This document shows positions 25,476 to 50,048 of a stretch of 64,000 nt of DNA, piece by piece; the stretch's first letter is position 1, and the number at the start of each line of letters is the position of its first letter. Source of the DNA: Myxococcota bacterium (GTDB lineage Bacteria > Myxococcota_A > UBA9160 > UBA4427); the NCBI GenBank assembly GCA_029268645.1, contig JAQWNI010000248.1, positions 4,346 to 68,345 of the forward strand. The letters run 5' to 3'. The notes below the pieces were generated by a model, which was not told the origin of the DNA, did no database searches, and saw only the letters and a list, made by a program, of their open reading frames with translations. Both the position numbers and the translations under genes were made by a program.

Positions 25476-25522
25476 GTTGAGCACGCGTCGCGGTTTTTCG
25501 CGGCGAAGGGAGAGTCCATCTC

Positions 25523-32105: not shown

Positions 32106-32893
32106 TCCTTGGCCGTACCCGTCTCGGAAGGCCATCGTGTGGCGCGCGCGCCGAGGTATCGCCGATGAAGCTTGCGCAATGCGATGGAGGCGCGTAGGAA
32201 ATCAAGAGCACGGACCTTGGACCCCCCGACGTCGACCCATGAATCCAGGGGGAATTCGTAGAGCACATTTTCGATCGGCGGTCGTCCATCCCAACGGCTG
32301 GCAGCCATTCGGCGCGCGAGAATCTCGACGTCAAAAATCCAGCCGCCTTCGAAGGGCTCTGTGAAAAGTTTTCTATTCGAATCGATATTCCGAAAGAGCT
32401 TGGCACCGCATTGTGTGTCGTAGACGGCCAGCCCCAAGGTCACGGAAGCGATCGTTGCAAAGACCCGACCCAGATAGTGACGTACTCGGTTCCGTTCAAT
32501 CCTTCGTCCAACCAATTGGACACGGGCGCCAAACACCATTTCGATTTCGGCGTTCTCATTGAGGATTCGACGTAGTGGTTGAATTTGATGAAGCGGTGCA
32601 GCGAGGTCTGCATCGAAATACCCAGCATTCTGGCACCCCAATTCGAATGCTCGCTGCATGCCCCGGCGGACGGCTTCGGCTTTTCCGAGGTTGATTTCCT
32701 GGTCAATGACGGTGATTCGATGTGGATTCTTTTCCTCGATCGAGCGAAGCACGGCAAGCGTCCCATCCCGGCTTCCATCATTGACGAGGATGAAGTCGGT
32801 TTGGGCATCCTGCTGTAAATGTGCCATGAAGGCTTCTGCGGGAAGCCGGTGGGCTTCGTTGAAGCAGGGAACGACGATGAAGGTCTCGGGCAT
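32102..32893 (-). CDS. GT2, polyprenyl-phosphate sugar synthase-like (ALG5/DPG type)
   Basis: VVPCFNE, VNDGSRD, NLGKAEAV, DADL, DTQCGAKLF, WIFDVE. Confidence 0.9.
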   Translation of the reverse strand: MPETFIVVPCFNEAHRLPAEAFMAHLQQDAQTDFILVNDGSRDGTLAVLRSIEEKNPHRITVIDQEINLGKAEAVRRGMQRAFELGCQNAGYFDADLAAPLHQIQPLRRILNENAEIEMVFGARVQLVGRRIERNRVRHYLGRVFATIASVTLGLAVYDTQCGAKLFRNIDSNRKLFTEPFEGGWIFDVEILARRMAASRWDGRPPIENVLYEFPLDSWVDVGGSKVRALDFLRASIALRKLHRRYLGARATRWPSETGTAKE

Positions 32894-33009
32894 GCGACTG
32901 TCAGTCTACCCCGACCCTGGAGATCTGCCTGGGGGGCCTTTATCTTGCTGGGGCATCATCGGACTGGCCGATGCACCGTGTCGTCTGCGATGGGCGGGGG
33001 AAGGGCGAT

Positions 33010-34737: not shown

Positions 34738-35724
34738 TTATCCGCGAAGCCAGAGATCCTGGGCGGCGCTCTTCCAGCCATAGCCGTAGCGAGCGTATCG
34801 CCCACTTGACCACTCTCGGAATACGAGGGGCAGGCGTTTCCAAAAAAAATTGGGCATGGCGGAGCGGCTCCCGGCGTGATCTCGCTTTTCTTCGATCAGT
34901 CGCCGGATCGGACTTCCAGCCGGGAGACCGGGGGCATGATCCTGAAGGCGTTCGAGGGCGAGGCTGAAAAAATCAAATTCCTCTTTGAAGGCGTTTCTGG
35001 CGACTTGCGCTCGGGCTTGGCGAAATTGATCGACTAGGCCCCGCTGCCGAATTCCAATTTGATTCTGGCCGTGGAGGCGGTAGCGAATCAAGGGATCATT
35101 GACGAGCGCGCAGGGCGCCCGGCAGGCAATGATGAACGCAACCCAGGCATCATGGACGCTGGGAAGGTCGGGGAAAGGAAAGAGGATATCGCGAAAATCA
35201 GCACGGAAGGCGAGGGTGGTGCCGGCTGCGACGACCCGGCGAGCAAAAACGGCAGGGGCCTCTCCTTGGCGGACTCGCTCTTGATCGGACGCGTCGAAAA
35301 AGAGTGCATCCCAAAGATCGTCCCCGATGGGAGTCAGGGTTTCGTCTACGATCTCGGCGTTCGAGAAGGCGAGTCCGACATCGGGCCGATTTTCGAAGTT
35401 TTTTGCGAGGGTTTCGATTTTGTGGGTCGCCCAGAGGTCATCTTGGTCTGCAAGAAATATCAGAGAACCTCGGCACATCGAAATGGCTCGTTCAAAATTG
35501 GCGGTGGATCCCTTCCGCTCTTGGGTCCCCTCAAGTCTGACCGGGAACGGAGCGCTCTGGGCGAAGGTCTCGATTTCTCGAACCGTCTGGTCTGTTGAGG
35601 CATCATCGCAGATGACCAGTTCGTCCGGCAGTCGCGTCTGTTCCGCAAGGCTCTGAAGCTGCTGCTGGACAAACGCGCTGCCTTCGCAGGTGGCCATGGC
35701 AATGGAGATTTTTTCGCGAGGCAT
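34738..35724 (-). CDS. GT2 glycosyltransferase (WfgS/rhamnosyltransferase-like)
   Basis: ICDDASTD, ADQDDLW, HDAW, YRLHGQNQIG. Confidence 0.9.
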   Translation of the reverse strand: MPREKISIAMATCEGSAFVQQQLQSLAEQTRLPDELVICDDASTDQTVREIETFAQSAPFPVRLEGTQERKGSTANFERAISMCRGSLIFLADQDDLWATHKIETLAKNFENRPDVGLAFSNAEIVDETLTPIGDDLWDALFFDASDQERVRQGEAPAVFARRVVAAGTTLAFRADFRDILFPFPDLPSVHDAWVAFIIACRAPCALVNDPLIRYRLHGQNQIGIRQRGLVDQFRQARAQVARNAFKEEFDFFSLALERLQDHAPGLPAGSPIRRLIEEKRDHAGSRSAMPNFFWKRLPLVFREWSSGRYARYGYGWKSAAQDLWLRG

Positions 35725-35875
35725 CCGGTCTCCACTCAATCAGCTGGGCGGGCCCATGGGCCACCAACGGCTACGGATCTGCCCGCTCATCTGCTTGCCC
35801 TCCAGTGTATCGCGGGGAATGGATTGCGGGGCACTGAGAATGGATTGGAATCTGTTGCAGAGGTATCTTGAGCAG

Positions 35876-37360
35876 ATGGGCTCCCCGAAACTCTTCGATC
35901 GATGGCCGTCGACCGCGTGGACTCGGGGGCATCGGAGAGTCTTTGATCGCCGCAACTTCACCCTGGGGCCTCCGGCCAAGCTGCTTCCGGGGCTTGGTCT
36001 CGTCGTGCTTTCGATGGTTCTCGCCGCCTGCGGTCCAGATTCTCAGACCCAGCGAATTCAGGATCCAAGGCCTAACGTCTTGTTTATTTCTGTGGATACG
36101 ATTCGGGCGGATCACCTTTCGGCCTATGGCTATGGCCGAGAGACATCGCCTTTTTTGAGCGGTTTGGCCCGCGACGGGGTTCAAGTGCAGGCCGCCTACG
36201 CCCCTTCTGCGACAACGGGCCCAACCCATGCCAGTGTGTTCACCGCGCAGCCTCCGATGGCTCACGGGGTTCGAAAAAACGGTCAGCCTCTGCCGGAAAA
36301 CGAGAAGACCTTGGCCGAGCGCCTTTCGGAAATCGGTTTCGAAACCGGTGCCGTGGTGAGTTCCTATGTACTGAGCGATCGCTTTGGCTATGGCCAAGGC
36401 TTCGATTCTTTCGACGATGATTTCTCCAAATCGAAGACCCCAGTGGGCTCTACTCTTTGGGAAGGCGAAACGATTGAGGAGCGTTTTTACGGTCGCGCGG
36501 ATGACACGACGGATCGTGCTCTTCGCTGGTTGGACGAAAGATCAGATGAGGCCGCACCGTTTTTTCTATTTGTTCACTACTACGATCCGCACGATCCGTA
36601 TGTTCCGCCGGAGAATTTTACGCCACCGTTTGCCCCCGGACGGAAAGAGTCCCTCAAACTCAATCGAACCATTTACCTCTATGATTGGTTGATTGCCTAT
36701 ACGGACCAACAAATCGGACGGCTTCTCGAAGGCTTGGATCTGGCGGGCTTGGCGGAAGACACACTGGTGATCGTGACGGGTGATCATGGAGAGGGCCTCA
36801 TGACTCACGGCCATATGTTTCATGGCGTCCACGTCTACGAGGAAGCCGTAAAAGTCCCCTTGATTCTTCGCTGGCCAGGGCATCTTCCCCAAGGTTTGAA
36901 AGTAGAGGGACCCTTTCCACTGGTTGAGTTGGCGCCTGCGCTTCTTGAGTTGATTGGTGATTCACCGAACGGGCCTTTGGCCTCGGCGGGGAGTGCGAGT
37001 CGCTTGTTGGGGAGAGGGGAATCGGCCGATGAGGAGATTCCGATCTTTCTTTACCGCCGACACTATGCGGATCCTAAGGAAGGCGATGGCCCCACCGCGC
37101 CTCGGGGAGAAAAGTTTGGTGTCCGCCTCGGCGGGTGGAAGTTGATCGTGGGGCCGGCTGAGGGCACCTTGGAACTCTATGGCTTGGTCGATGACCCCCT
37201 GGAGCAGATTAACCTCGCTTCGGAAGAGCCGGAGCGGGTGGCAAGGCTGTCGGCCTTGATCGACGCCTGGCGCCTTGAGCACGAAAGAAATGTCATTGAA
37301 CCGGCCCCGGTTCTTCAGCAGGATCGGGAGCGTCTGAAGGCGCTGGGGTACGTCGAGTGA
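35876..37360 (+). CDS. Sulfatase/alkaline-phosphatase-superfamily lipoprotein
   Basis: Lipobox LAAC, PNVLFISVDTIRAD, TTGPTHAS, DPHDPY, DHGE, LKALGY; start uncertain. Confidence 0.85.
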   Translation: MGSPKLFDRWPSTAWTRGHRRVFDRRNFTLGPPAKLLPGLGLVVLSMVLAACGPDSQTQRIQDPRPNVLFISVDTIRADHLSAYGYGRETSPFLSGLARDGVQVQAAYAPSATTGPTHASVFTAQPPMAHGVRKNGQPLPENEKTLAERLSEIGFETGAVVSSYVLSDRFGYGQGFDSFDDDFSKSKTPVGSTLWEGETIEERFYGRADDTTDRALRWLDERSDEAAPFFLFVHYYDPHDPYVPPENFTPPFAPGRKESLKLNRTIYLYDWLIAYTDQQIGRLLEGLDLAGLAEDTLVIVTGDHGEGLMTHGHMFHGVHVYEEAVKVPLILRWPGHLPQGLKVEGPFPLVELAPALLELIGDSPNGPLASAGSASRLLGRGESADEEIPIFLYRRHYADPKEGDGPTAPRGEKFGVRLGGWKLIVGPAEGTLELYGLVDDPLEQINLASEEPERVARLSALIDAWRLEHERNVIEPAPVLQQDRERLKALGYVE

Positions 37361-38808
37361 TGAAACGGGTCGATTGGCGGGGAAGCTTGTGGCGGCCTCT
37401 CATCAGGTCAGTCTGGGTCATTGTTCTATCGCTGAATGCTTGTTCGGCTGATAAAGGTCCAAGGCCGGATGTCCTACTCATTACCATCGATACATTGAGA
37501 GCCGATTGGATTCATGCCTATGGTTTCGAGGGGGAGACGACGCCGCAAATCGATGCCCTTGCAGCGCGAGGCGTTTTGTTCGAGAAGGCGATTGCAGCAG
37601 CGAGCCTGACGGCCCCCGCCCATGCCTCCATCATGACTTCACGCTACGCGCGGGAACACTCGATTGGGACTTTTAACGGCGAAACACGCCTCTTCGGGGG
37701 TGAGACATTGGCCGAGCGATTTCGAAGCGCGGGATACGAAACAGCTGCTTTTGTCAGCAACATTGTTTTGCGCCGTCGCAGTGGATTGGATCGAGGTTTT
37801 CAGACCTACGACGATGAACTGGAAGATTCTGAAGTTAACCGGGCGGCGTATTTCGAGCGCGTAGCAGCCAAAACGGCGGCGCGGGCAATGGACTGGTTGG
37901 CGAGTCGCCCCCGAAACCAGCCGGTTTTCGTTTGGCTCCATCTTCAGGATCCTCATGGACCGTATACCCCTCCTGAGGAATTTGAGGGCCAGGTGGGGGA
38001 TTGGCCGCTACGTATGAAGCGGCCACTGCCGTTCTTGAAGAACAATATTGGTAGGGCCGGGATTCCCGCCTATCAGGCCCTGAATGATGTCCGACAGCCT
38101 GAGTTTTACGCCGGCCGATATGGTGAGGAGCTGCTGTATGCGGACTACTGGGTGGGCGAGGTGGTCGAATTTTTCGAAACGCGGGCGGCCCCACGTGGTG
38201 GAATCGTTTTGCTGACAGCGGATCATGGCGAGAGCATGGGTGAACTGGGGTGGTTTTTTCAGCACGGGCACGCCACGACACCCGATCTCGCCCGCGTTCC
38301 GCTGTTGGTTGTCGCTCCGGGGGCCTCATCGAGTCGAGTCGAGTCGCTCGTGAGCCACGTCGACATTGCCCCCACTCTTCTTGATCTTGCCGGGTTGAAC
38401 CCTCTTCCACATTCGAGCGGACTTTCTTTGGCTCCCGTGATCTTTGGGGCTGCTCCAGGGGAATCCCGTTCGATTTTTACCGACACAGACGGAGAAGCGG
38501 CGGTCTACACAGCGAACCGGTTGACCCGTTTGAGTAGCCCTCAGCTTGTTGGAAATTACAGTGGCCCGCCGCACCCCCCAGAGGTTCAAACTTTGGAATG
38601 GGGAGAGGAGGGACCGTGGAAAAACCTCGAGAATGATGTCGAAGCTACTGAGCTGCTGATGCGCTACATCCAAAACAGCGCCCCACTTACGTCTGCGGAA
38701 GCGATGCGCCCGGAGCATATTGAGCAACTCAGGGCACTGGGCTATTTGCCTCCGGAAGACGAGCGGGGCGAGACCGATTCCAGTCAGAGTGCGCCTTCTT
38801 CACGATGA
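37357..38808 (+). CDS. Sulfatase/alkaline-phosphatase-superfamily lipoprotein
   Basis: Lipobox-like LNAC, IDTLRAD, LTAPAHAS, DPHGPY, DHGE, LRALGY. Confidence 0.85.
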   Translation: MMKRVDWRGSLWRPLIRSVWVIVLSLNACSADKGPRPDVLLITIDTLRADWIHAYGFEGETTPQIDALAARGVLFEKAIAAASLTAPAHASIMTSRYAREHSIGTFNGETRLFGGETLAERFRSAGYETAAFVSNIVLRRRSGLDRGFQTYDDELEDSEVNRAAYFERVAAKTAARAMDWLASRPRNQPVFVWLHLQDPHGPYTPPEEFEGQVGDWPLRMKRPLPFLKNNIGRAGIPAYQALNDVRQPEFYAGRYGEELLYADYWVGEVVEFFETRAAPRGGIVLLTADHGESMGELGWFFQHGHATTPDLARVPLLVVAPGASSSRVESLVSHVDIAPTLLDLAGLNPLPHSSGLSLAPVIFGAAPGESRSIFTDTDGEAAVYTANRLTRLSSPQLVGNYSGPPHPPEVQTLEWGEEGPWKNLENDVEATELLMRYIQNSAPLTSAEAMRPEHIEQLRALGYLPPEDERGETDSSQSAPSSR

Positions 38809-38871: not shown

Positions 38872-39594
38872 ATGTATCGAGGCCTTTCGGTCATTGCCAT
38901 TGCCCCCGTTTTAGACGAGGAAGTCAAAGTGGGCGACGTGGTGCGTCGGACACCTCGTCCCTTAGTTGATGCCGTCCTCATCGTTGATGATGGCTCAACG
39001 GACCGGTCCGCAGAGGTGGCTCGGAGCTTGGGCGCTCGTGTCCATTCGATGGGCCGGGTGGCCGGCGTGGGGGCCGCGATCCGTGCAGGTTATCGTATCG
39101 CGGTGGAGGAAGGATTCGACGTTGCCGTCGTGATGGCCGGCAACAATAAAGATGCGCCGGAGGAGATTCCGATTCTGTTGGATCCGATCGTCGAGGGAAA
39201 AGCTGATTTCGTGCAAGGTTCGCGCTTCTTGAAGAAGGATCGCAATTTTGGACCGATGCCGCTCTATCGTCGCTGGGCGACCCGGATCCATCCTCTGCTC
39301 TTTTCTTGGGTTGCAGGGCGTCGGGTTTCCGAATCAACCAACGGATTTCGAGCCATTCGTAGAGAAGTTCTGACCGATCCTCGGCTCGATTTGGATCAGG
39401 ACTGGCTGGATGAATATGAACTTGAACCCTACCTCTATATCCGAACGATTCGATTGAATTACCGTACCGCCGAGGTGCCCGTAACTAAGATTTACCCTCC
39501 GCGGAGCCTTGGCCAAACTAAGATGAAGCCGATCATTGGGTGGTGGTCTATGCTGCGCCCTCTCGTGTTCCTCGGTCTGCGGATGAGGAAATAG
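38872..39594 (+). CDS. GT2, polyprenol-monophosphate sugar synthase-like (DPM1 type)
   Basis: VDDGSTD, GVGAAIRAG, FVQGSRF, STNGFRA; DxD position reads AGN. Confidence 0.85.
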   Translation: MYRGLSVIAIAPVLDEEVKVGDVVRRTPRPLVDAVLIVDDGSTDRSAEVARSLGARVHSMGRVAGVGAAIRAGYRIAVEEGFDVAVVMAGNNKDAPEEIPILLDPIVEGKADFVQGSRFLKKDRNFGPMPLYRRWATRIHPLLFSWVAGRRVSESTNGFRAIRREVLTDPRLDLDQDWLDEYELEPYLYIRTIRLNYRTAEVPVTKIYPPRSLGQTKMKPIIGWWSMLRPLVFLGLRMRK

Positions 39595-39598
39595 AACG

Positions 39599-40627
39599 AT
39601 GATCGGAGTAGCCGTTATCGGAGCCGGGCATTGGGGCCCGAACTTGGTTGCCAATTTCGATCGGAGCGATCGAAGCCATTTGACCTACGTGGTCGATGCT
39701 GACTCCGAGCGTCTCGCCGCAATTTCTGGCCGCTATCCCTCAGCGAGGACGACATCCGACCTGTCAGGTGAGCTGGCAGATGACTCAGTCCAGGCCGTCG
39801 TGATCGCCACGCCCACCGGGTCCCATTTTGAGTTGGCTCGATCCGCCTTGGAGGCGGGCAAGCATGTGCTCGTCGAGAAGCCGATGACTCACTCGATCGA
39901 AACGAGCCAGGCCTTGTGCGCCCTCGCGGAAGAAAGGGGCCGAGTCATCATGGTCGGGCACGTATTCGTCTACAATCCAGCCGCACTCCGGGTCAAGGAA
40001 TATATTGAAGAGGGCTCGCTTGGCCAACTCCATTACATCTCGATGGTGCGAACGAACCTTGGTCCTATCCGAGTGGATGTGGACGCGGCGTGGGACCTTG
40101 CTGCCCACGACATCGCCCTCGCTAATTTCTGGTTGGGCTCAGAGCCGAAAACGATTTCCTCGACCGGAGGGGCATACATCAATCAGGGGATTTGCGACGT
40201 TGTTTTTGCGACGCTGCGATATCCCAATGACATTCTGGTCAATCTGCATGCCTCGTGGCTCAATCCAAGGAAAGCCCGGGATATCACAATTGTGGGGGAG
40301 CGCCGTATGCTCACCTTTGATGACCTTCAGGTCAATGAGCCCCTTCGCCTCTATGACAAGCGAGTCGGCCAGGCGGCGCCTGGGCCGGAGCTAGTTGATT
40401 CGATTGAGTCTTTTCGAACCAGCGTCCGCGTTGGGGACATCACCGTTCCACATGTTGCCCAGGATGAACCGCTGATGGCGGAGTGCGATCACTTCCTCGA
40501 CTGCATCTTGAAAGGAGAGTCGTCGCGTTCCGGCGGATCGGCGGGCTTGTCCGTCGTTCGGGTGTTGGAGGCTCTCTCTCAATCTCGCGCGTTGGGCGGA
40601 CGAGAAGTGAGCCTTGAGCTCTCATGA
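39599..40627 (+). CDS. Gfo/Idh/MocA NDP-sugar 3-dehydrogenase (WbpB/WlbA-like)
   Basis: GAGHWG, VEKPM, DLAAHD. Confidence 0.85.
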   Translation: MIGVAVIGAGHWGPNLVANFDRSDRSHLTYVVDADSERLAAISGRYPSARTTSDLSGELADDSVQAVVIATPTGSHFELARSALEAGKHVLVEKPMTHSIETSQALCALAEERGRVIMVGHVFVYNPAALRVKEYIEEGSLGQLHYISMVRTNLGPIRVDVDAAWDLAAHDIALANFWLGSEPKTISSTGGAYINQGICDVVFATLRYPNDILVNLHASWLNPRKARDITIVGERRMLTFDDLQVNEPLRLYDKRVGQAAPGPELVDSIESFRTSVRVGDITVPHVAQDEPLMAECDHFLDCILKGESSRSGGSAGLSVVRVLEALSQSRALGGREVSLELS

Positions 40628-41739
40628 AGATTCCTCTCGTCGATTTATCTTGGCAGCATCGCGAGATCGAGCGCGAAGTTCGGTCCGGATTCGATCGGGT
40701 GATGGCCTCTTCGGATTTCGTTTTAGGGACTGACGTCGATGAATTCGAACAGGAATTTGCGAAATTTTGCGATGTTCCGTTTTGCGTTGGCGTCGCCAAC
40801 GGAACGGATGCGATCGAGTTGGGATTGAGGGCTCTTTGTATCGGACCCGGTGATGAGGTCATCGTGCCGGCGAATACCTTTATCGCCTCAGCCCTGGCTG
40901 TCGTGCGGTCTGGGGCCAAGCCTGTTTTTGTCGACTGCGAAAGTGACTTTCACCTGATCGACGTCAAAAATGCTGAGGCACAAATCGGAGACCGGACGCG
41001 GGCAATTTTGGCGGTGGATCTCTTTGGGCAATTGCCCGACATGGGCGCCTTGGAAAATCTGGCCAAGCGGCACGGACTGTCGCTCGTGGAGGATGCCGCG
41101 CAGGCGCATGGGGCGACCCAGGGGATTCGCCGTGCAGGAGCCTTCGGGGCTCTCTCCGGGACTAGTTTTTATCCAGGGAAAAATCTAGGCGCCTACGGCG
41201 ATGCGGGAGCCGTGACAACGAGGGATCCAGACCTCGCCCATCATTTGCGAAAGCTTCGGAACTACGGGAGTGATGTGAAGTATCAGCATCCCGTCATCGG
41301 CTTCAACTCCCGCTTGGACAGTCTGCAAAGTGTCGTCCTTCGGGCGAAGCTCACTCACCTGTCCTCTTGGAACGCGGCTCGGGCCGAAGCGGCGGGTCGC
41401 TATGCCGAGATGCTAGCCGGTACGTCGGGCGTGGCTCTTCCGAAGGTGGCTCCCGGAAATGAACACGTATGGCATATCTATGCCATTCGCGTTCAGGCCC
41501 GATCACGAGTTCTGGAAACGCTCCAGCGAGCCGGAATCGGCGCATCGGTCCACTACCCGATTCCGATCCATTTGACCCAGGCCTTTGCTGATGGGAACCA
41601 CCGACGGGGCGACTTTCCGAATGCGGAAGCTGCAGCAGAAGAGATGATTTCCTTGCCCATCTTTCCAGGCATCACCGCTTCCCAGCAAGAGCAGGTCGCG
41701 GGCGTGCTCAAAAGAGCCGTTGAAGAGGCGTCGGGCTGA
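40624..41739 (+). CDS. DegT/DnrJ/EryC1/StrS aminotransferase (WbpE/FdtB-like)
   Basis: NGTDA, EDAAQAHG, SFYPGKNLGAYGDAG, NSRLD. Confidence 0.93.
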   Translation: MKIPLVDLSWQHREIEREVRSGFDRVMASSDFVLGTDVDEFEQEFAKFCDVPFCVGVANGTDAIELGLRALCIGPGDEVIVPANTFIASALAVVRSGAKPVFVDCESDFHLIDVKNAEAQIGDRTRAILAVDLFGQLPDMGALENLAKRHGLSLVEDAAQAHGATQGIRRAGAFGALSGTSFYPGKNLGAYGDAGAVTTRDPDLAHHLRKLRNYGSDVKYQHPVIGFNSRLDSLQSVVLRAKLTHLSSWNAARAEAAGRYAEMLAGTSGVALPKVAPGNEHVWHIYAIRVQARSRVLETLQRAGIGASVHYPIPIHLTQAFADGNHRRGDFPNAEAAAEEMISLPIFPGITASQQEQVAGVLKRAVEEASG

Positions 41740-41742
41740 ACT

Positions 41743-42309
41743 GTGGAAGACGTATTCGTCCATTCATTGGCTCTCTGCGAGAGTGAGAAGGTTGGTTCTG
41801 GAACCCGGATCTGGGCCTTTGCCCATGTGATGAAGGGGGCTCGGATTGGTCGCCGATGTAATATTGGAGGGGGGAGTTTCGTCGAGTCCAAAGCAATCGT
41901 CGGAGACGACTGCACGATCAAGAATGGGGTTCAGGTCTGGGAAGGCGTTCGTCTCGGCAATAATGTTTTTGTTGGCCCAAACGCAACCTTCACCAACGAT
42001 TTGCGCCCTCGCGCGGGACGTGATTCGGAGCCCTTCGAGCCCATCGCAACCAAGGTTGAAGACGGCGTGACAGTTGGAGCCAATGCCACCATCGTATGCG
42101 GCGTGCGTTTGGGCGCAAATGCCTTCGTGGCGGCGGGGGCCGTGGTGACTCGGGATGTCCCCGCCCACGCCCTCGTTGTTGGTTCCCCAGCGCGAAATCG
42201 GGGTTGGGTCTGTCGTTGCGGGGCTTCCCTGCCCGAAAACCTCGCTTGCGAGTGTGGTCGCCGGTACCGTCTCATGGATGGGGAATCCGGTCTATCGCCC
42301 GAGGAATGA
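41743..42309 (+). CDS. Hexapeptide-repeat N-acetyltransferase (WbpD/WlbB-like)
   Basis: TRIWAFAH, GPNATFTND, GANATIVCG, C-terminal CRCG...CECG. Confidence 0.88.
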   Translation: MEDVFVHSLALCESEKVGSGTRIWAFAHVMKGARIGRRCNIGGGSFVESKAIVGDDCTIKNGVQVWEGVRLGNNVFVGPNATFTNDLRPRAGRDSEPFEPIATKVEDGVTVGANATIVCGVRLGANAFVAAGAVVTRDVPAHALVVGSPARNRGWVCRCGASLPENLACECGRRYRLMDGESGLSPEE

Positions 42310-42336
42310 GTCCGCGCATCGGGAGGGCCTCGCCTC

Positions 42337-44640
42337 GTGAAAGATCTTGATTTGCGGGGTAGACCACTGATCTTCATTGGGTTGGTCGTGTTGGCGGCGG
42401 CGGCCCTGGGGATTCGAGCACTCGGTTTTGAGTATGTTTTTGTCGGCGGCGAGGTCGTTTTTCCACCGGCAGACCCTCAATACCACCTGCGCCGAGCGCT
42501 CTTTACGATGATGCAGTTCCCGGACGTCCTGCTCTTCGATCCCTACATTAATTTTCCAGGCGGAGCGCCGGTGCCCTGGCCCCCTTTGTTCGATTGGTTG
42601 CTCGGGGCCGGGGGCTGGCTCGCAGGGGGAACGACAGGCGACTTGGAGAGGGTGGCTGCTTGGGCCCCCCCGGTCTGCGCCGCGCTTTCGATCTGGCCTC
42701 TCTATCTCGCCGGATGCCAGCTCTCCTCACGCCGAGTCGGCTTCTTGGCGGGCTTCTTCTTTGCCCTGTTGCCGATCAGCGTCGTGTACACCCGGTTGGG
42801 GAACGCGGATCATCATGGTGCGGTGGCTCTGATCGGAGCTTGGCTGCTGTATTGCCTGCTGGGTTTGGTGGATCCGGCAGCATCGCGGGTGAGAATGATT
42901 GCTCTGGCCGGTCTTTTGACCCTTCTCTCCTCGCTGATGCTGCTGACATGGCACGGCAGCCTTCTCTATCTGGCTCCGGCGCAGGGCCTGCTTCTCGTGG
43001 CCGGCATTCTTTCCGGAAGAAGGCGCCTTCTGGTCGCCCAGGCTTGCAGTGCTTTCTTGGCCGGGTGCGGTGTGGTGCTCTGGCTTGTCGTGTCACCCAC
43101 GCCGCTCGGAGGAGACTACTCCTCCATCGCACTTTCGAGGCTACATGCTCTCGCTTTGGGGGCCGCTTTTATCACGGCCGGCCTCCTTTGGTGCGTGATC
43201 AAAGTCGGCTTGGCGGACACTGTATTGCGACGTTTTCTTTGGGCGGCGGGCCTAGTGGTCGCATTGGGTATGGCGATCGTTTTCCTGCCCGGGCCTCGAG
43301 AGGGATTGGAGCTTGCCTATCAATTTCTGACCCTTTCGGATCAAGTGGGTGCGAGCACGGGTGAGCAGACCCCTCTTTTTTCAATCGGCAATCGGCTACA
43401 AGGGCCGCCCGCATCGCGTAGTTGGGGCCTTTTCGCCTATCTCTTGCCCGTGATACCGCTGGCGGCATGGTTTGCGGGGCGACGGCCAACCGCTGAGCCG
43501 GGCGCTCGCGCAGCAGGTTGGGTTCTTTTTGCCTGGGGGTTGTTTTTTTGTCTTTTGGCCTCGCTTCAGCGTCGTTACGGCAATGACGCTGCGCCCGCCG
43601 CGGCACTGCTGTTTGCACTTTTGTTGTCGTCGCTCGCGGATCGGCTGGGCCAAGTGATCGCTCGAAGGTCTGGCCCGCGGACGGGTTCGCTGATGGCATT
43701 CGGGCTGTCGGCTTCGATCGTGCTGCTGGGATTTTGGCCCGCTTTTCGTGCGGTCTACCAGCCGCGAGTGATGGCTTCTTGGTCCGCGTGGCAAAACCCT
43801 CTGCCTTCGGAGGGCGCCTCATCAAAGAGCATCGCGGCTACGCTCCACCAGTTCGCGGGCCAGGTGAGAGAGTGGACGCCGGAAACCTCGGGTTATTTGG
43901 AATCGGGGCGGGGGCCGGAGTATGGGATCATCGCGCATCCAAACTTGGGCCATGCGTTGCAATATCGAGCGCGCAGAGCGACGGCGACGGATCCATTCTG
44001 GTGGTACATCGGTCGCGAGAATTGGGACCGCACTGAAGCATTTCTCCGGGCCAAATCCGAACCCCAAGCCTTGGCTCTCGCGCGCTCTTTGGAGGCTCGA
44101 TATGTGATCACGATGCCCGATTTGTCCCCGGGAACCATTCTGGCTCGGCTGCACGACCGCGACGGGCGGGCCGATGGCGCATTGCCATCACTTAACCACT
44201 TTCGCTTGGTGGGAGAAGCGCCACCGGGGGGACTGCCGATCGGGGCAATTTTTGATCGGCGGGGCGAAGCGAGGATTCCCTACAAGCTTTTCGAGATTGT
44301 TCCGGGTGCGGTGATCGAAGTGTCCGCACCCCCGGGCACACCCGTCGAGGCCAAAGCTCAAATTCAAGTGCCGAGGGGTCGGCGTTTTAGCTACCGCGTC
44401 GTCGGCCTGGCTAACGAACAGGGTTCGGCTCGACTCCGGGTTCCCTATCCGACCTTTGCCGGAGAAGGGGAAACGCTCTCTCACGGTGCCCGGGCCATTG
44501 GGGGATATCGAATTCGTGTGGGCCAGATAAATCAGCCCCCGGTTGAGATTTCGGAACGCGCAGTCCGTGTGGGTCGTGTCGTGCGTGGGGCGTCGGCTGC
44601 CGAGCGGGGCGTTAAGAGCCTGGGAGGCCGTCCATCCTGA
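42337..44640 (+). CDS. STT3/AglB-like oligosaccharyltransferase homolog with a non-canonical WWDYG motif
   Basis: DPQYHLRR, FDPYINFPGG, WPPLFD, DHH, STGE, QRRY, YGIIAHPNLGH, about 13 TMs plus a soluble C-terminal domain. Confidence 0.8.
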   Translation: MKDLDLRGRPLIFIGLVVLAAAALGIRALGFEYVFVGGEVVFPPADPQYHLRRALFTMMQFPDVLLFDPYINFPGGAPVPWPPLFDWLLGAGGWLAGGTTGDLERVAAWAPPVCAALSIWPLYLAGCQLSSRRVGFLAGFFFALLPISVVYTRLGNADHHGAVALIGAWLLYCLLGLVDPAASRVRMIALAGLLTLLSSLMLLTWHGSLLYLAPAQGLLLVAGILSGRRRLLVAQACSAFLAGCGVVLWLVVSPTPLGGDYSSIALSRLHALALGAAFITAGLLWCVIKVGLADTVLRRFLWAAGLVVALGMAIVFLPGPREGLELAYQFLTLSDQVGASTGEQTPLFSIGNRLQGPPASRSWGLFAYLLPVIPLAAWFAGRRPTAEPGARAAGWVLFAWGLFFCLLASLQRRYGNDAAPAAALLFALLLSSLADRLGQVIARRSGPRTGSLMAFGLSASIVLLGFWPAFRAVYQPRVMASWSAWQNPLPSEGASSKSIAATLHQFAGQVREWTPETSGYLESGRGPEYGIIAHPNLGHALQYRARRATATDPFWWYIGRENWDRTEAFLRAKSEPQALALARSLEARYVITMPDLSPGTILARLHDRDGRADGALPSLNHFRLVGEAPPGGLPIGAIFDRRGEARIPYKLFEIVPGAVIEVSAPPGTPVEAKAQIQVPRGRRFSYRVVGLANEQGSARLRVPYPTFAGEGETLSHGARAIGGYRIRVGQINQPPVEISERAVRVGRVVRGASAAERGVKSLGGRPS

Positions 44641-46306
44641 AGCGACCGGAGCCCAAGTAGCGGAAACGGTGCGGCTGAACGAAGCGGATGGAGTAGAAGT
44701 CAACTTGCCCGCTGTGGTTCAGCCAGGGCCGAATCACGACTTGGTCGGGAGGAAGCTGCTTGGCAAATTCCAGCATTGGGGCGCTCAAGCCAAAGGCATC
44801 ATAGGGTGGGGCGTGGACGAGGTAGTGGGTTTGGGGGTCTCCTTCGTGAATCCACGGGTGTCCTGCCGCAAACGCTTGCGGGATCGACCAGATCGCCTCT
44901 TGCACAGCCAGATCCTGGGTTAGAAAGAGCAGGGGTTCGTGAAATCCCCAATCCAGACTAATGGCTTCGGCTCCCGGGGTTGCCTCAAGCTCCTCTGCGA
45001 GGGTCGCGATTGCGGGGCTCCAACGGCCGAGGCCCCCCGTTTCCGAAATTGTTTTTTCTGTCTCGACGACGATCAGGAGCTGGGTGGTGATCACGGCTCC
45101 TAGTGCGAGAATGACCACAATCCGAATCCACCCTCGCCTTGTTCGCTGACTGTGTCTCCAGACAACTTCGAACGCGCAGGCGACGAGGAGCTGGACGAAG
45201 GGCAGGGCATTCAGGTGGTGGTGGGCTCGGACCGCACCCGGCAGTGCGAGGGTTCCCAGGAGAATTGCGAATGTTGTGATCCAGAGCCAACGGCGCGGGT
45301 CACGAGAGGCCAGCTCAGGGGCTTGGCGGATTCCGCGTACGAGATCAAGACCGACGATGAAGAAAGATCCTATGAGGGCAATCCCAAGTAGGCCTCCTTG
45401 AAGGTCAAGCGATCGCGCTTGATCGAACAGGCCACCACTTCGAATGACACGGAGAAATTGGGTTCCGTCGAGGACATTCCAAAGAACCACGAGGCGATCG
45501 GTGAGGTAGCCTCGATCTGCGATGGAGCTACTCACTGCGAGAAGAGAAAGGGCTGAAGACCACATGGGCAGAGATGCGATGAGCAGTGCGCAGCCTGCCA
45601 AAACGAGTTCGGTTTTGCGATCGCGGAGAATCTCGCGGGTCAGAGAGGGGTGCCCCAGCAGAATTCCCAGCCCACAGGCTCCGACGATGAGTGCGAAGTC
45701 GGCGCGGCTGTAGATCCCCAGCCCCAATGCGAGTCCTCCGCTCAAGGCGGCCACTCGCCTTCTCGCCGAACTTGAGGATTGCCAAGCCCAAATTAGTAAA
45801 AGCAGTCCCGCCCCGCGGCAGAGGAAGTTGGTGGTGAAGGGACCCCACTCGAAACGTCCAAATAAAAGAAAGGAGGGATCGGTGGCCACCAAGGCGCCAC
45901 CGATCAACGCGACACGGAGCGAGAAGAGTTTTCTGCTCCAAAGAAGAGTGAGCAGAAGAGCCAAGCAAGCCATACTAAACGTAGCGATTCGAAGGGTAGC
46001 GACGCTGGCTCCGCCGATCCAAAACGCTGGGATCAAGAGCTGACTCTACAACGACCCTAAAAAGGCGGCGTTTCGGATCGGAAACGGCCGCCCGAGCCAC
46101 TCAACGGAGCGCACGCTGGCTGGATGTAAGTTCTCCCGACCCGGTTCAAGAAAGTCTCGAGCCTGCTGGGCGATAAAGGCTTCATCATAATAGAGCCCGA
46201 GGGTTTCGATTCTTGGAAGGAGGAGCACTGCGCAGAGGAGAAGGAACACGGCCCAAGCCGTCCAGAGGACGGCGACCTTGTGATCGTTCAGGGAGGGTTT
46301 ATTCAT
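44612..46306 (-). pseudogene. GT-C fold glycosyltransferase interrupted by one in-frame TAG at 46046-46048
   Basis: The 86-aa ORF (TM plus GLYYDEA) and the 474-aa ORF are in the same frame: FLGSL*SQLLIPAFW. Confidence 0.75.
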
Positions 46307-46911
46307 GAACGACTAAAGCCGAGTCGCGCAATGAAGTGAAGGTCTCGATCAAAAAACCAGCTGAGGGGGGTCGGGTATAGGCCGACGGTTCGAGTCATCG
46401 ATTCGACGCTTAGATGGAGCCTTTCGAATGCGATCCGCCACTGGTCCTCGGTCCAGTAATGATGAGGCAATGCAACATCAAAGCGGGCGTTCCCGATGCG
46501 ATCCATGAAGCGAAGCGTCTGAGAGGCCAGGAGCCCCTTCAGTCGATGGTCCTTGATCACCAGATGATGGCGTGCCACACGGGCCGACTCTTCCAGGAGG
46601 GCTTCCGGATCCTGAGCGTGGTGGAGGACGTCGACAAGCAGGACGGTGTCGACGCTCCGGTCGGGCTCAGGGAGCGTCACGCCATCAAAGGGCCTGACTT
46701 CGATTGCAGTTTCAGATCGAACCATCACATCGGTTCCGCGAATTTTCAGATCGGGCCGCATTTGGGCCAGTCGGGCGGTGAGGTGACCGTCTCCACATCC
46801 CACGTCCAGGAGGGATCCATTGGGGGGGATCACCCGGGCGAAGTGCTCCGAAAGAACACGGACTCGTCGGGAGACTGCGTAGCTCTCGTGTGCATATTCG
46901 ACGGGGTTCAA
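46303..46911 (-). CDS. Class I SAM-dependent methyltransferase
   Basis: LLDVGCGDG, VDVLHH; TTG start overlaps the upstream TGA, stop overlaps the downstream ATG. Confidence 0.88.
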   Translation of the reverse strand: MNPVEYAHESYAVSRRVRVLSEHFARVIPPNGSLLDVGCGDGHLTARLAQMRPDLKIRGTDVMVRSETAIEVRPFDGVTLPEPDRSVDTVLLVDVLHHAQDPEALLEESARVARHHLVIKDHRLKGLLASQTLRFMDRIGNARFDVALPHHYWTEDQWRIAFERLHLSVESMTRTVGLYPTPLSWFFDRDLHFIARLGFSRS

Positions 46912-48107
46912 CGTCGGCCCATTCCGAGGATGCTGACAAAAAAGCCAGACAGAATGGTTTGAAATCCAAGGGCAGCAAGTGTGACACCTGGGATGACCCA
47001 GCGCAGGGTGAACGGGTAGTCGAGGGCTCCGTAGTCGGTGGCTCGCCATTGAAAGAAGGTTGAGCCGATAAAGAGAAGGCCGGTCATCAGGGCGAGCGAG
47101 CCGAGGATGAGGCCGCGCTCGAGGGTGGCCCATTCAAAGAAGCGGTCGAGTCGAGGATCGGGCGGGGCCAAGCCTTCGGAGACGGCGAATGTTTTACTGA
47201 GCAGGGCAAAAAGCACCGACTGAAAGCCCATCAATAGCGCGAGGCTTGAGGCCAGAAGTGTGTGGGCGTCGAGTCTGGCCCCCAAAATTTCTGCGCCGGG
47301 AAGGGCGAGGGCGAACCCCACGCCGCCGAAGGCCATCAGGAGGAGGCCAGGCATGAGAAAGAGCCAGCGGGGACTATTGAGGAGGAAAAAACGAAGCGTT
47401 CGCCACCCATCGCGGAAGGTGCGTAGGTGGGGGCCATGGGCGCGTCGGCCGTCGGGGTGCAGCGTAATGGGAACCTCAGCGATCCGAGCCCCATGAAGAC
47501 TCGACTTTATGATCATCTCGGTCGCGAACTCCATGCCCGTACATCGCTGGTCCAGTTTCTTGTAAAGGGTTTGGGTAAACCCGCGCATTCCGCAATAGGC
47601 GTCTGTCACTGGGGCTTTGAACATGCCCCGAGCGAGCGCGGAAAGAAGAGGGTTGCCGAACCACCGATGTAGAAAGGGCATGGCACCCGGCAGAACGCGA
47701 CCGCCGCCTGCAGGAAGTCGGCACCCCTGCACCAATTCGTAGCCGTCACGCAATTTCTCAACGAAGCGTGGAATCTCAAGGAAGTCGTAGCTGTCGTCGG
47801 CATCCCCCATAAGGACGAAGGGCCCCCGAGCCGCCGCGATGCCGCCCATCAAGGCGCTGCCGTAGCCCCGTCTTTCGACGTGGATCACTCGCGCCCCAGC
47901 CTTTTGAGCAATTTCAGGCGACCCATCCTGACTGCCGTTGTCGGCCACAATGACTTCGCCATGAACCCCTGCTTCTTGCATGGCTGAAAAGGCCTTTTTA
48001 AGGCAAATCGGCAGGGTTTCGGCTTCATCGAGGCAGGGCATGACCACGCTCAGCTCGATCTGTGTCGGGCTCGTTTCTTCGTCATCGGGCCGGTTTCCTT
48101 CAGACAT
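46908..48107 (-). CDS. GT2, DPM/DPG synthase-like with C-terminal membrane domain
   Basis: VMPCLDE, ADNGSQD, RGYGSAL, DADDSY, MEFATEM, four C-terminal TMs. Confidence 0.9.
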   Translation of the reverse strand: MSEGNRPDDEETSPTQIELSVVMPCLDEAETLPICLKKAFSAMQEAGVHGEVIVADNGSQDGSPEIAQKAGARVIHVERRGYGSALMGGIAAARGPFVLMGDADDSYDFLEIPRFVEKLRDGYELVQGCRLPAGGGRVLPGAMPFLHRWFGNPLLSALARGMFKAPVTDAYCGMRGFTQTLYKKLDQRCTGMEFATEMIIKSSLHGARIAEVPITLHPDGRRAHGPHLRTFRDGWRTLRFFLLNSPRWLFLMPGLLLMAFGGVGFALALPGAEILGARLDAHTLLASSLALLMGFQSVLFALLSKTFAVSEGLAPPDPRLDRFFEWATLERGLILGSLALMTGLLFIGSTFFQWRATDYGALDYPFTLRWVIPGVTLAALGFQTILSGFFVSILGMGRR

Positions 48108-48389: not shown

Positions 48390-50048
48390 GTGTCCTGGGG
48401 CGCCTTTGTCCTCCTAGGTCTGGTTCTGTATTCGCCGGTTCTGGACGGAGCCTTCATCTCTGACGATTCGCATTACGTATTGAAGAATCAGTACGTCCAC
48501 GACTTCACCCTGGACAACCTCGTAGCGATCTGGGACCCCACCAGCGAAGTCGCTGTGCTGGTCGAGAACTATGCGCCGGTGCACCTGACGCTGCATTCCC
48601 TTGAATGGCAGATGTTTGGGTCCGAGGTGACGGGGTATCACGTCGTGAATCTCGTGCTGCACGCCTGGGCCGCCGCTCTTTTGATCCTGCTTTATCGGCG
48701 GAGTGGTCTAGGGCCCTGGGTGGCCTGGGCGGGAGCGGCTTGGTTTTTTCTGCATCCGGGAAACGTCGAGTCAGTGGCCTGGATCTCGCAGCTGAAAAGT
48801 TCGGCGGCGTTGGTTCTCTCCTTGCTGGCCATTCTCGCTCACCCCGCTCGACCGCTGATGGCGCTGATTGGCTTCACGTTGGCGCTTTTTGCCAAGCCGT
48901 TTTCAGCTTTTGCTTTGCCGGTCGTGGTGCTTTTCGGCTGGTGTAGAGGGCGTAGGGTTCGAGAGGCGGGCGAAAAGGAGATCTCATTTCGCTGGGAGTG
49001 GTTGGCGGGCTGGATTTTCGTGGTGATGTTCTTTGCCTGGGTGGAATCGGCGGCGTTTGGTCAGTCCGCGGGCCTCTCGCCACCTCTGTATGCCGAGCTT
49101 GATGTCCGGTATATGACCATTTTTTCGGTATTCATCCGCTACGCCTGGATGAGTCTCAGCGGAACGGGCCTCTCGACTTTCCACGAGCCCCCGCCGGTTG
49201 TGAACCCCTGGGACCCCTTCTTCCTGGCCGGATTAGTTTTGATGATGCTGCTGGGTTGGAGAACCGTCGTCACCTTGCGCAGAGGGAGTGAGGAGTCAGT
49301 CTGGTGGCTCTGGGCGGCCATTGCCTTTGCTCCGCTTTCGGGAGTTTTGCCTCTGCCCTATCCGATGGCCGATCGGTATCTCTACTTCGTACTCCCCGGC
49401 CTCATCGGTGGGAGCTGTCTGGCGTGGCAAGACACGGTGAATCCTTGGCTCGCCGAAGTTCTCGACCCGGAACGGAGAGATCGGCTGAGGCAGGGTCTTG
49501 TCGGGGCGTTCATACTTTGGCTGCTCTGGTTCTCTTGGCAAACCTATGAGCAGGCCCCGGTTTACCGATCCGCCGAAGCTTTGATGGCCGAAGCGGAACG
49601 GAACTATCCGGAAGGCGCGGCGTCACAGATTCGACGGGCCGGTCGCGAGGCCGCACTCGGAAATGTGGCGGTGGCGGTTGAGCACCTCCGCGCTGCGCGC
49701 GCGAGAGGCTATAACCGGGTTGACCATTTGATTGGTGACCAACGCTATGACTCGTTGCGTTCGGATCCGGGATTTATCGCGCTCCGAGACGAGATGGCCG
49801 ATGACTGGATCATCCGACTTGAATTGGATCCGGACCCCTCCCATTATAAGGCGCGGGCTTTGGCGCAGGCCTATGTGGCCAAAGGCGACCTTCGCGGTGC
49901 ATTGGAAGTGATTGAGGGTGCGGCCGCTCGACCGGGTCCGATTGGAGATGGACTGCGCTCCGATGCGGAGCAGTTGCGCTCTCAGATCGCCTTCGAGGAT
50001 CGGCTCGAAGCGGAAAGGAAACGGCTGAGAGCGCGAAGGTCGGACTGA
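48390..50048 (+). CDS. TMTC-like GT-C glycosyltransferase with TPR-like C-terminus
   Basis: FISDD, GYHVVNLVLH, LHPGNVESVAWIS, FAK, MADRYLY. Confidence 0.78.
   Translation: MSWGAFVLLGLVLYSPVLDGAFISDDSHYVLKNQYVHDFTLDNLVAIWDPTSEVAVLVENYAPVHLTLHSLEWQMFGSEVTGYHVVNLVLHAWAAALLILLYRRSGLGPWVAWAGAAWFFLHPGNVESVAWISQLKSSAALVLSLLAILAHPARPLMALIGFTLALFAKPFSAFALPVVVLFGWCRGRRVREAGEKEISFRWEWLAGWIFVVMFFAWVESAAFGQSAGLSPPLYAELDVRYMTIFSVFIRYAWMSLSGTGLSTFHEPPPVVNPWDPFFLAGLVLMMLLGWRTVVTLRRGSEESVWWLWAAIAFAPLSGVLPLPYPMADRYLYFVLPGLIGGSCLAWQDTVNPWLAEVLDPERRDRLRQGLVGAFILWLLWFSWQTYEQAPVYRSAEALMAEAERNYPEGAASQIRRAGREAALGNVAVAVEHLRAARARGYNRVDHLIGDQRYDSLRSDPGFIALRDEMADDWIIRLELDPDPSHYKARALAQAYVAKGDLRGALEVIEGAAARPGPIGDGLRSDAEQLRSQIAFEDRLEAERKRLRARRSD

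Follow-up and report, generated by a model that had tools for sequence, protein, structure and literature searches.

A bacterial branch of the AglB family that keeps the catalytic residues of oligosaccharyltransferases but not the WWD motif

Can a glycosyltransferase of the STT3/AglB/PglB family do without the WWD motif, and if so, what would it glycosylate? The question is raised by a gene at positions 42337-44640 of a 64,000-nucleotide stretch of DNA (contig JAQWNI010000248.1, assembly GCA_029268645.1), here called the window, from an uncultured marine Myxococcota bacterium. In its passage on the motif, PMC11407970 describes WWDxG as shared by AglB, PglB and Stt3, which makes it an obvious marker for N-glycosylation in genomes. 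A sequence-only reading of the window had noticed that the encoded protein resembles STT3/AglB with HPN in place of WWD, and had proposed that its acceptor has changed. The observation proves correct, and it applies more widely than that reading had supposed.

The protein was first described as an archaeal-type STT3/AglB homologue on the strength of its open reading frame (ORF) and a series of motifs (DPQYH, FDPYINFPGG, WPPLFD, DHH, STGE, QRRY and ATDPFW), and both the coordinates and all of these motifs are present in the translation. Pfam recognizes an STT3 domain at residues 32-252 (PF02516, 41.9 bits against a cut-off of 24.5) and the AglB_L1 domain at residues 657-749 (PF18079, 55.9 bits against 23.6). 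The sole NCBIfam model matched is TIGR04154, 'oligosaccharyl transferase, archaeosortase A system-associated', at 241.8 bits, below its cut-off of 450. Among the sequences of solved structures, a phmmer search with the single protein ranks Archaeoglobus fulgidus AglB-L first (AfAglB-L; 3waj, E 1.6e-9). A profile made from 48 homologues spread over all 120 listed (there are at least 120), which we call A1, finds AfAglB-L at E 4.5e-48 and human STT3A at E 0.005 in the PDB sequences, with no PglB row at E ≤ 0.01. The AlphaFold model built from A1 has a mean predicted local distance difference test score of 93.2 and a predicted template-modelling score of 0.92, and a Foldseek comparison with the PDB returns AfAglB-L at ranks 1-4 (E 8e-30 to 7e-28, TMq 0.69-0.77, best entry 7e9s), followed by eukaryotic STT3 (TMq 0.49-0.60), the C-mannosyltransferase DPY19, PglB (TMq 0.40-0.49) and then ArnT (ranks 24 and 26, TMq 0.33-0.36, with E 9e-7 at the TMq of 0.36). 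The protein is therefore best described, from its Pfam domains, its sequence matches and its predicted fold, as an AglB-type member of the STT3 family, consisting of a polytopic GT-C part and a periplasmic AglB-fold domain, and not as an ArnT-like enzyme. Membership of the ArnT/PMT group was rejected, with PMT_2 (PF13231) below its cut-off (16.9 versus 26.1 bits) and the fold match to ArnT far weaker than that to AglB. The proposed grouping with AglB/STT3 therefore stands, while the word 'archaeal-type' is apt for the ancestry or likeness of the protein, but not for its host, which is a bacterium.

What has replaced WWD, and what has been kept? When aligned to 3waj by phmmer, the protein places iiaHPNLGH under visWWDYGH, DPQY under DPWY, DHH under DHH, astgE under ltiaE, and QRRY under QNRF, and in both the profile and the MAFFT alignments canonical relatives read WWDYGY in the HPNLGH columns. 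Since the 3waj, profile and MAFFT alignments agree, HPN truly fills the columns of WWD, as had been proposed. To count conservation we used 273 non-canonical rows, scoring each position over the rows that cover it. Asp46, Asp158, His160, Trp205, Glu343 and Arg413 are each kept in at least 98% of the 254-271 relatives scored (Trp205 in 260 of 262; for the others see the table). We take Asp46 and Glu343 to hold the acceptor carboxamide, as their counterparts do in AglB and PglB, and Trp205 and Arg413 to bind the donor phosphate, as in AfAglB. The earlier statement that catalytic and metal residues are retained is thus borne out for Asp46, the Asp158-His-His160 motif and Glu343.

The triplet itself behaves very differently. 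WWD is found in none of the 48 aligned relatives, which reach down to 36% identity; instead, the six columns read H (36), A (26) or P (20), N (38), one of L, I and F, G (47) and H (44). Across 267 non-canonical relatives, the first position is H in 99, P in 57 and R in 17, the second P in 117, A in 99 and W in 36, and the third N in 125, S in 45 and G in 34, with other residues in the remainder, while the following G and H are kept in 264 and 247. A larger set of 258 proteins, made up of the 150 best from an exhaustive search and the initial homologue list, contains WWD once (P0255, with WWDLGH), and the remaining triplets are subgroup-specific: HAN, HPN, PAN, DPS, YPG, KPS, xWG and others. 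Within the group of the query (120 sequences, single linkage at 48% identity), positions 2 and 3 of the triplet have entropies of 0.99 and 1.05 against a column mean of 1.84, whereas across the family (236 near-complete sequences) positions 1 and 3 reach 3.09 and 2.46 against a mean of 2.17. Higher conservation within a group combined with greater variability across the family is the pattern expected of specificity-determining positions, though the pattern is not a strong one. The other wall of the Ser/Thr pocket would be formed by the DK or MI motif, which we tentatively place at YVVVD of the canonical proteins and at the Lys of etgKyya in AfAglB. Here YVVVD becomes YV[IV]T, with the Asp replaced by Thr592, a residue nearly invariant within the WWD-less clade, and a Thr lies under the Lys of AfAglB; the alignment of this region is poor.

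To place these proteins among their relatives, we combined an exhaustive profile search with a tree. The search covered 1.84 billion cluster representatives; at E ≤ 1e-3 it returned 5,135 proteins, of which 1,698 reached E ≤ 1e-30, totals that include canonical AglBs; the WWD-less clade takes up at least the top 150 clusters at 50% identity. Homologues with a source name come from metagenome-assembled genomes labelled 'Myxococcota bacterium' or 'Deltaproteobacteria bacterium', and the 56 related loci that we collected are likewise mostly Myxococcota or Deltaproteobacteria, the others being assigned to Spirochaetaceae, Proteobacteria, Gemmatimonadota or simply 'bacterium'. Canonical relatives were reached by searching with P0255 and then with P0272: WWDxG is present in 105 of 119 P0272 homologues (WWDYG in 94), and the few with a source name are all bacterial (Acidobacteriota, Chloroflexota/Dehalococcoidia, Rokuibacteriota, Patescibacteria and Bryobacterales). 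The tree, built with FastTree, has 109 rows: full-length proteins sampled from the successive sets at intervals of five, three or four, the whole of P0259-P0278, and ten forced rows. Proteins shorter than 640 or longer than 1,100 residues were excluded, and the root was placed on four near-identical canonical proteins of 793-1,042 residues. The WWD-less proteins group together in a single 70-row clade, with a local support of 99, that lies within the WWDYG proteins, and the presence or absence of WWD requires 4 changes, compared with 31.7 for shuffled labels. The query lies in a clade of 21 rows (support 100), in which HAN and HPN are the usual triplets and PAN, PPN and DPN occur in a few rows, and an earlier tree of 92 rows gave the same picture. 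As judged from these alignments and trees, the Ser/Thr-binding WWD triplet was lost a single time in a large bacterial clade, whose subgroups have since maintained triplets of their own, here H[AP]N, so that the replacement is an ancient, family-wide trait and not a peculiarity of one gene.

Two proteins deep inside the WWD-less clade, P0255 and P0259, read WWDLGH, with nearest relatives that read TWSRGH, AWGDGH and similar; this is either a retention or a re-invention of WWD. In some of the canonical bacterial homologues (P0328, P0340, P0354 and P0382) the transferase is preceded by a fused DnaJ domain (PF00226) at the N-terminus.

Does the host also encode a conventional enzyme? The assembly of the window (4.08 Mb, 284 contigs) is 83% complete, and within it PF02516 and TIGR04154 come over or near threshold only at 42337-44640; the A1 profile matches one of its 15,919 six-frame ORFs. 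The search for a canonical paralogue, suggested along with the original observation, found none in this 83%-complete genome: the sole WWDxG among six-frame ORFs of at least 100 residues belongs to a 256-residue ORF of contig C263, to which the clade profile has no match. Five other Myxococcota genomes (G001-G005) have 1, 4, 3, 1 and 6 profile matches, two of the three in G003 being adjacent pieces of one gene, and WWD is absent from every match that covers the motif. In 151 genomes sampled evenly from the phylum, the clade profile matches at E ≤ 1e-30 in 24, including eight of the nine from the window's own family; weak matches outside the order cover the N-terminal half only and may be other STT3 types. 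Several Myxococcota genomes (G002, G003 and G005, with loci L065-L079, and also G032, G108 and G128) hold three to six WWD-less AglB-like paralogues that differ from one another in their triplets. An internal TGA occurs in one match of G005/G128, and in G003 and G138 there are matches broken into two pieces that lie side by side.

A simple explanation for the missing motif would be that the gene is decaying. Recent decay of WWD, the possibility against which close orthologues were to be checked, was rejected: WWD is absent from all 48 relatives, the catalytic residues are fixed, and the WWD-less proteins make up one supported clade. It is also very improbable that the protein is a non-enzymatic or decaying relic, or a hydrolase of lipid-linked oligosaccharides that only releases free glycan. 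The loss of a hallmark motif, a TAG stop in one neighbouring GT-C gene and the release of free oligosaccharides by PglB, an additional activity of that enzyme, could all be cited for such a view, but they are set against an intact reading frame of 767 residues, catalytic residues conserved to the degree given above, many subgroups with up to six copies per genome, and conserved synteny. Identical pieces also recur in marine metagenomes of several studies, and near-identical ones (at least 99%) are present in contigs of marine-metagenome runs from separate studies. One oligo-dT RNA library contains two 151-base contigs identical to 43822-43972 and 43946-44096, for which carry-over of DNA is possible.

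If the enzyme is active, it might still be an ordinary oligosaccharyltransferase for N-X-S/T sites, with the hydrogen bonds to the +2 hydroxyl supplied by other residues, such as His534 and Asn536. Both His and Asn are capable of hydrogen bonds, Asn536 is kept in 38 of 48 members of the group at the low entropy noted above for the third position, and a PEP-CTERM protein encoded nearby has six N-X-S/T sites. We nevertheless regard this explanation as quite improbable. The triplet varies widely by subgroup (DPS, YPG, PWS, KPS and others) against an unchanging set of catalytic residues, which is not expected if all subgroups read the same sequon, and the sister canonical proteins hold on to WWDxG at the frequency given above. 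WWD mutants of PglB and of yeast Stt3 are inactive. The sequons of the neighbouring protein are not conserved among its four orthologues, a small sample, which have two to six each at different places. Finally, the account of WWDXG in PMC11407970 treats the motif, common to AglB, PglB and Stt3, as involved in mechanism.

What, then, might the enzyme transfer? The gene is the last of five plus-strand genes at 38872-44640 that overlap or are separated by gaps of at most 28 bases, and it lies within a larger set of glycan genes (Table 1). For the first gene of this apparent operon, the best NCBIfam matches, each below its cut-off, are AglJ (TIGR04182, 86 bits) and then haloarchaeal dolichyl-phosphate hexose transferase, PpgS and ArnC. 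No phosphoglycosyl-transferase family appears among the Pfam and NCBIfam matches for the window ORFs scanned, which fits a monophosphate-linked donor. Conservation of the cluster was assessed by tblastn against the 56 related loci, many of which are cut by contig ends, and the cluster is conserved around the closer orthologues, in about 20 of the 56.

Table 1. Features of the AglB-like gene and its surroundings in the window, with the number of the 56 related loci that contain a tblastn match
Position	Strand	Feature	Basis	Loci with match
42337..44640	+	AglB/STT3-family GT-C glycosyltransferase, 767 aa, GTG start, without WWD	ORF list, Pfam, NCBIfam, AlphaFold, Foldseek	
42472..42474	+	Asp46 codon (first acidic motif, DPQYH)	D in 253/254 relatives; aligned to D of AfAglB DPWY	
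42808..42816	+	Asp158-His159-His160 codons (DHH motif)	D 259/259, H159 246/259, H160 254/259	
43363..43365	+	Glu343 codon (E of TIxE, here STGE)	E in 265/270	
43573..43575	+	Arg413 codon (QRRY)	R in 266/271	
43936..43953	+	HPNLGH, residues 534-539, aligned with WWDYG[HY] of canonical AglB	phmmer, profile, MAFFT alignments	
38872..39594	+	240-aa GT2, AglJ / polyprenyl-phosphate hexose transferase-like, first gene of apparent operon	Pfam Glycos_transf_2	19/56 (72-82% identity)
39599..40627	+	GFO/IDH/MocA oxidoreductase, UDP-GlcNAc 3-dehydrogenase-like	Pfam; archaeal UDP-GlcNAc 3-dehydrogenase NF040723, 159 bits, below cut-off	21/56
40624..41739	+	DegT-family sugar aminotransferase	Pfam, 365 bits	18/56
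41743..42309	+	Hexapeptide-repeat sugar N-acetyltransferase, NeuD/PglB/VioB-like	Pfam, NCBIfam	
44612..46306	-	PMT_2-like GT-C, in-frame TAG at 46046-46048	Pfam	22/56
46303..47133	-	S-adenosylmethionine (SAM)-dependent methyltransferase; true start probably further in	Pfam	17/56
46908..48107	-	399-aa GT2 with C-terminal membrane part, AglJ/Dol-P-hexose transferase-like	Pfam, NCBIfam	18/56
48390..50048	+	Conserved polytopic membrane protein of the cluster, TPR at C-terminus	ORF list, NCBIfam, tblastn	23/56
50058..52577	-	TPR protein (839 aa), top NCBIfam match PrsT	TIGR02917, 163.9 bits, cut-off 312	
52586..55018	-	TPR protein (810 aa), top NCBIfam match PrsT	TIGR02917, 255.4 bits, cut-off 312	22/56
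55536..56651	+	Secreted PEP-CTERM protein, candidate acceptor, probable start Met41 (nt 55656)	PF07589, 23.1 bits vs cut-off 20.7	
56921..58402	+	Third sulfatase-fold (alkaline-phosphatase superfamily) protein	Pfam, NCBIfam, synteny	
35690..38808	+	Two sulfatase-fold proteins, 35690-37360 and 37357-38808	Pfam, NCBIfam, tblastn	
30087..32135	-	Membrane protein, left part of conserved cluster		
32102..32893	-	GT2, left part of conserved cluster		
32971..34725	+	Membrane protein, left part of conserved cluster		
34738..35739	-	GT2, left part of conserved cluster		

Based upon these likenesses, we propose with moderate confidence that the protein is an active enzyme of the AglB lineage whose acceptor rule is no longer N-X-S/T, and that it transfers a polyprenyl-phosphate glycan made by its own operon, possibly onto PEP-CTERM proteins. 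The 3-dehydrogenase, aminotransferase and acetyltransferase would turn UDP-GlcNAc into a UDP-2,3-diacetamido sugar, which the AglJ-like GT2 would load onto polyprenyl phosphate. After flipping, the AglB-like enzyme would hand this sugar, alone or extended, to an acceptor on the periplasmic side that is selected by features other than a Ser/Thr at +2 of N-X-S/T. The other GT-C proteins could add sugars from polyprenyl-phosphate donors made by the second AglJ-like GT2, and the methyltransferase of the cluster may help to elaborate the glycan, as AglD, AglS and AglP do in Haloferax. In the most speculative step, the acceptor would be a surface protein, with the PEP-CTERM family of the same cluster as the first candidate. 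The proposal of the sequence-only reading is therefore supported in part, in that the loss of WWD and the retention of the catalytic residues are observed, whereas the change of acceptor is something that we infer from them.

The link to protein sorting comes from the right side of the cluster, where the PEP-CTERM gene sits between the gene for the 810-residue TPR protein and that for the third sulfatase-fold protein. Read from Met41, its product has a signal peptide, and at its C-terminus FVPEPGT is followed by a hydrophobic helix and then RNRMKRK. PrsT (TIGR02917), the TPR lipoprotein of the XrtA/PEP-CTERM system, is the top NCBIfam match of both TPR proteins, each under the 312-bit cut-off. 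G004 shows the same gene order with an orthologue of the PEP-CTERM gene at 62% identity, and G001 does so with two tandem copies at 52%; the G002 contig ends before this position, so that the synteny holds in two of three testable loci. PEP-CTERM proteins also occur 3-6 kb upstream of another group of paralogues, which carries YPGIGH or HPNVGH, in five loci (L038, L042, L044, L047 and L061). Their C-terminal 56-78 residues are 38-45% identical to those of the window protein, and the one in L061 also aligns with it over the full length at 28%. When ORFs of at least 170 residues in the 6-kb flanks of 31 more distant paralogue loci were clustered, TPR and sulfatase-fold proteins and a small PEP-CTERM protein were found. 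In the host genome PEP-CTERM matches at E ≤ 0.1 number 36, of which 31 pass the Pfam cut-off, and one of them is the C-terminus of the window ORF 55536-56651. The genome also has six exosortase (EpsH family) matches over cut-off, all on other contigs; some of these are fragments at contig ends and may belong to a single gene.

The PEP-CTERM family of the window (55656-56651, with orthologues in L116 and L117) is rich in Gly (15-17%) and Thr (13%). Its four orthologues share two invariant Asn in non-sequon contexts (TTN[VL] and GTN[IVA]L) and an invariant CP[ST]GCLGG motif.

In their treatment of PEP-CTERM genes, Haft et al. (2006; PMC1569441) define PrsT and place such genes near exopolysaccharide genes. 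Veith et al. (2020; PMC7468200) describe, for type IX secretion, a 'linking sugar' of the Wbp pathway that is amide-bonded to the C-terminus of the cargo, and in the same context speculate that PEP-CTERM/exosortase systems use a similar amino-acid-modified sugar.

The acceptor need not be a protein, however. The enzyme could act on a lipid or an envelope glycan, or build a glycan anchor for the exosortase-cut C-terminus of PEP-CTERM proteins, following a logic like that of ArnC and ArnT in which a modified aminosugar is placed on polyprenyl phosphate, flipped and passed on by a GT-C enzyme. Taken together, these routes seem to us unlikely, though they are the main rival. Both walls of the Ser/Thr pocket are changed, counting Thr592 at the position where we place the D of the DK motif; the operon runs from a GT2 with ArnC among its matches through an oxidoreductase, a DegT aminotransferase and an acetyltransferase to the GT-C gene; and the further polytopic membrane and sulfatase-fold proteins are typical of envelope-glycan loci. 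The linking sugar of type IX secretion, with the analogous speculation for exosortase systems in that part of PMC7468200, points in the same direction. On the other hand, the entire periplasmic domain, including the AglB_L1 unit, is retained, the fold likeness to ArnT is far below that to AglB, and neither a WbpA-like uronic-acid step nor a VimA-like gene was found among the ORFs scanned. No STT3, AglB or PglB enzyme of established function is known to act on anything other than protein Asn. A protein acceptor is favoured over a lipid or glycan because the whole AglB periplasmic domain is kept, because Asp46 and Glu343 would hold an acceptor carboxamide, and because the synteny with PEP-CTERM and PrsT-like genes recurs.

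Several points weigh against the proposal of an active enzyme with a changed acceptor rule and a possible PEP-CTERM substrate. His and Asn could still hydrogen-bond a hydroxyl, so that a Ser/Thr-type sequon might yet be read, and the operon layout of aminosugar enzymes, polyprenyl-phosphate GT2 and GT-C also fits an ArnC/ArnT-like transfer to lipid or glycan. The best NCBIfam matches of the neighbouring genes all lie below the curated equivalog cut-offs, so that the identity of the sugar and that of PrsT are likenesses only. The window of 64 kb contains no exosortase gene, and the PEP-CTERM gene is absent from its expected place in G005, one of the three testable orthologous loci. A crude regular expression finds 13 PEP-CTERM ORFs in 0.768 Mb of flanks (in 11 of the 56 loci) and 27 in the 4.08-Mb genome, an enrichment of only about 2.6-fold to which the loci of one paralogue group contribute several of the 13. 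Of the 151 sampled genomes, 50 carry an exosortase, and exosortases extend through nearly all of the order, genomes that lack the AglB-like gene included; co-occurrence of the enzyme with exosortases is therefore confounded by kinship and adds nothing. The FastTree trees, lastly, have Shimodaira-Hasegawa-like local support only and drew many composition warnings, and we trust their main split but not their fine order.

A bolder form of the proposal, which we think doubtful but worth stating, is that this large and hitherto undescribed bacterial AglB branch has given up the otherwise universal N-X-S/T reading head, has diversified it, and is the dedicated glycosylation enzyme of PEP-CTERM/exosortase systems, a mirror of archaeal AglB with PGF-CTERM and archaeosortase. 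Each paralogue would then recognize its own PEP-CTERM family by a determinant other than a sequon, or would build the sugar anchor used by the exosortase.

Other features of the locus bear on the glycan genes themselves. The TAG at 46046-46048 splits the PMT_2-like gene after residue 86, with the YYDEA loop motif preceding the stop. All 14 orthologues that span this position have Lys there, so the stop looks like a single AAG-to-TAG change, and a single read contig (run X4) reaches the site, which lies 27 bases from the contig end; the TAG may stem from a nonsense mutation, from strain variation or from a fault in the assembly. The three sulfatase-fold proteins, all members of the conserved cluster, read T-x-P-x-H (for example LTAPAHAS) at the place where sulfatases have C-x-P-x-R, a pattern that resembles the Thr-nucleophile phosphodiesterases and phosphotransferases NPP, EptA and LtaS. 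They have weak NCBIfam matches to EptA/MCR and LtaS beside those to arylsulfatases, and may not be sulfatases. The membrane proteins at 30087-32135 (-), 32971-34725 (+) and 48390-50048 (+) have no Pfam match even at E 5, and the first loops of these three polytopic proteins contain acidic motifs (FWQDEGE, FISDDSHY) reminiscent of GT-C enzymes; if they are GT-C proteins, the cluster would have five in total. Upstream of the glycan cluster, at a distance of a few kb, are GlmU- and GlmS-like genes for the supply of UDP-GlcNAc (23997-27358, +); loci L044 and L064 likewise have such genes beside the AglB-like gene. An AlgX-like SGNH-domain protein, of a family involved in polysaccharide O-acetylation, is encoded close to the right end of the window, at 62145-63335 (-).

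Here a whole bacterial clade has kept the catalytic machinery yet dropped the WWDxG marker motif. A large, conserved and apparently active STT3 branch without WWD should surprise specialists. If these enzymes are active, STT3-type glycosylation of proteins or of the envelope would be wider in bacteria than motif-based surveys suggest, and the clade would offer natural, re-targeted oligosaccharyltransferases of use in glyco-engineering beyond N-X-S/T. Their linkage to PrsT-like and PEP-CTERM genes would also provide a testable answer to the question of which modification accompanies exosortase sorting, which PMC1569441 and PMC7468200 leave open where they discuss it. A full-text literature search, with most subscription journals outside its reach, found no description of STT3/AglB homologues without WWD, nor of a link between them and PEP-CTERM proteins. 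Lombard (2016; PMC4973528) mentions only 'a few bacterial homologues' within the euryarchaeal clade.

How does the protein compare with known systems? We take the family as a whole (PF02516, with STT3, AglB and PglB) to correspond to GT66 of CAZy. Its closest solved relative, by sequence and by fold, is AfAglB-L (3waj, 3wak, 5gmy and 7e9s), a euryarchaeal 'long' AglB, with which it shares the DxxY, DHH, TIxE-type Glu and Arg motifs in register as well as the AglB_L1 peripheral domain, and from which it differs in being only 17-19% identical, in having HPNLGH for WWDYGH, in its bacterial host and in being about 100 residues shorter. Campylobacter PglB and eukaryotic STT3 share the GT-C superfamily and overall fold (Foldseek ranks 5-23) but are much more distant, and both keep WWD according to the motif description in PMC11407970. 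ArnT and PMT (GT83 and GT39) have in common with the protein and its locus the GT-C fold, polyprenyl-phosphate sugar donors and an operon logic of ArnC-like GT2 and DegT, whereas ArnT has no AglB periplasmic domain.

As a gene set, the cluster resembles the Agl pathway of Haloferax volcanii (AglJ, AglG/I/E, AglB, AglD, AglS and AglP). In Haloferax, AglJ loads dolichyl phosphate, further GT2s extend the chain and AglB transfers it, after which AglD and the GT-C enzyme AglS add the last sugar from Dol-P-mannose; AglP acts as a methyltransferase. By family likeness the same cast is present here, namely AglJ-like GT2s, further GT2s, an AglB-type transferase, a PMT_2-like GT-C and a SAM-dependent methyltransferase. 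The differences are that the system is bacterial, that its scores are below equivalog level, that it adds sulfatase-fold, PrsT-like TPR and PEP-CTERM proteins, and that its transferase has no WWD. The nearest outgroup on the tree consists of the bacterial members of TIGR04154 (Acidobacteriota, Chloroflexota, Rokubacteria and others), which keep WWDxG in 105 of 119 while the query clade does not. Both sides are connected by name or context to C-terminal sorting, TIGR04154 to PGF-CTERM and archaeosortase, and the cluster described here to PEP-CTERM and exosortase.

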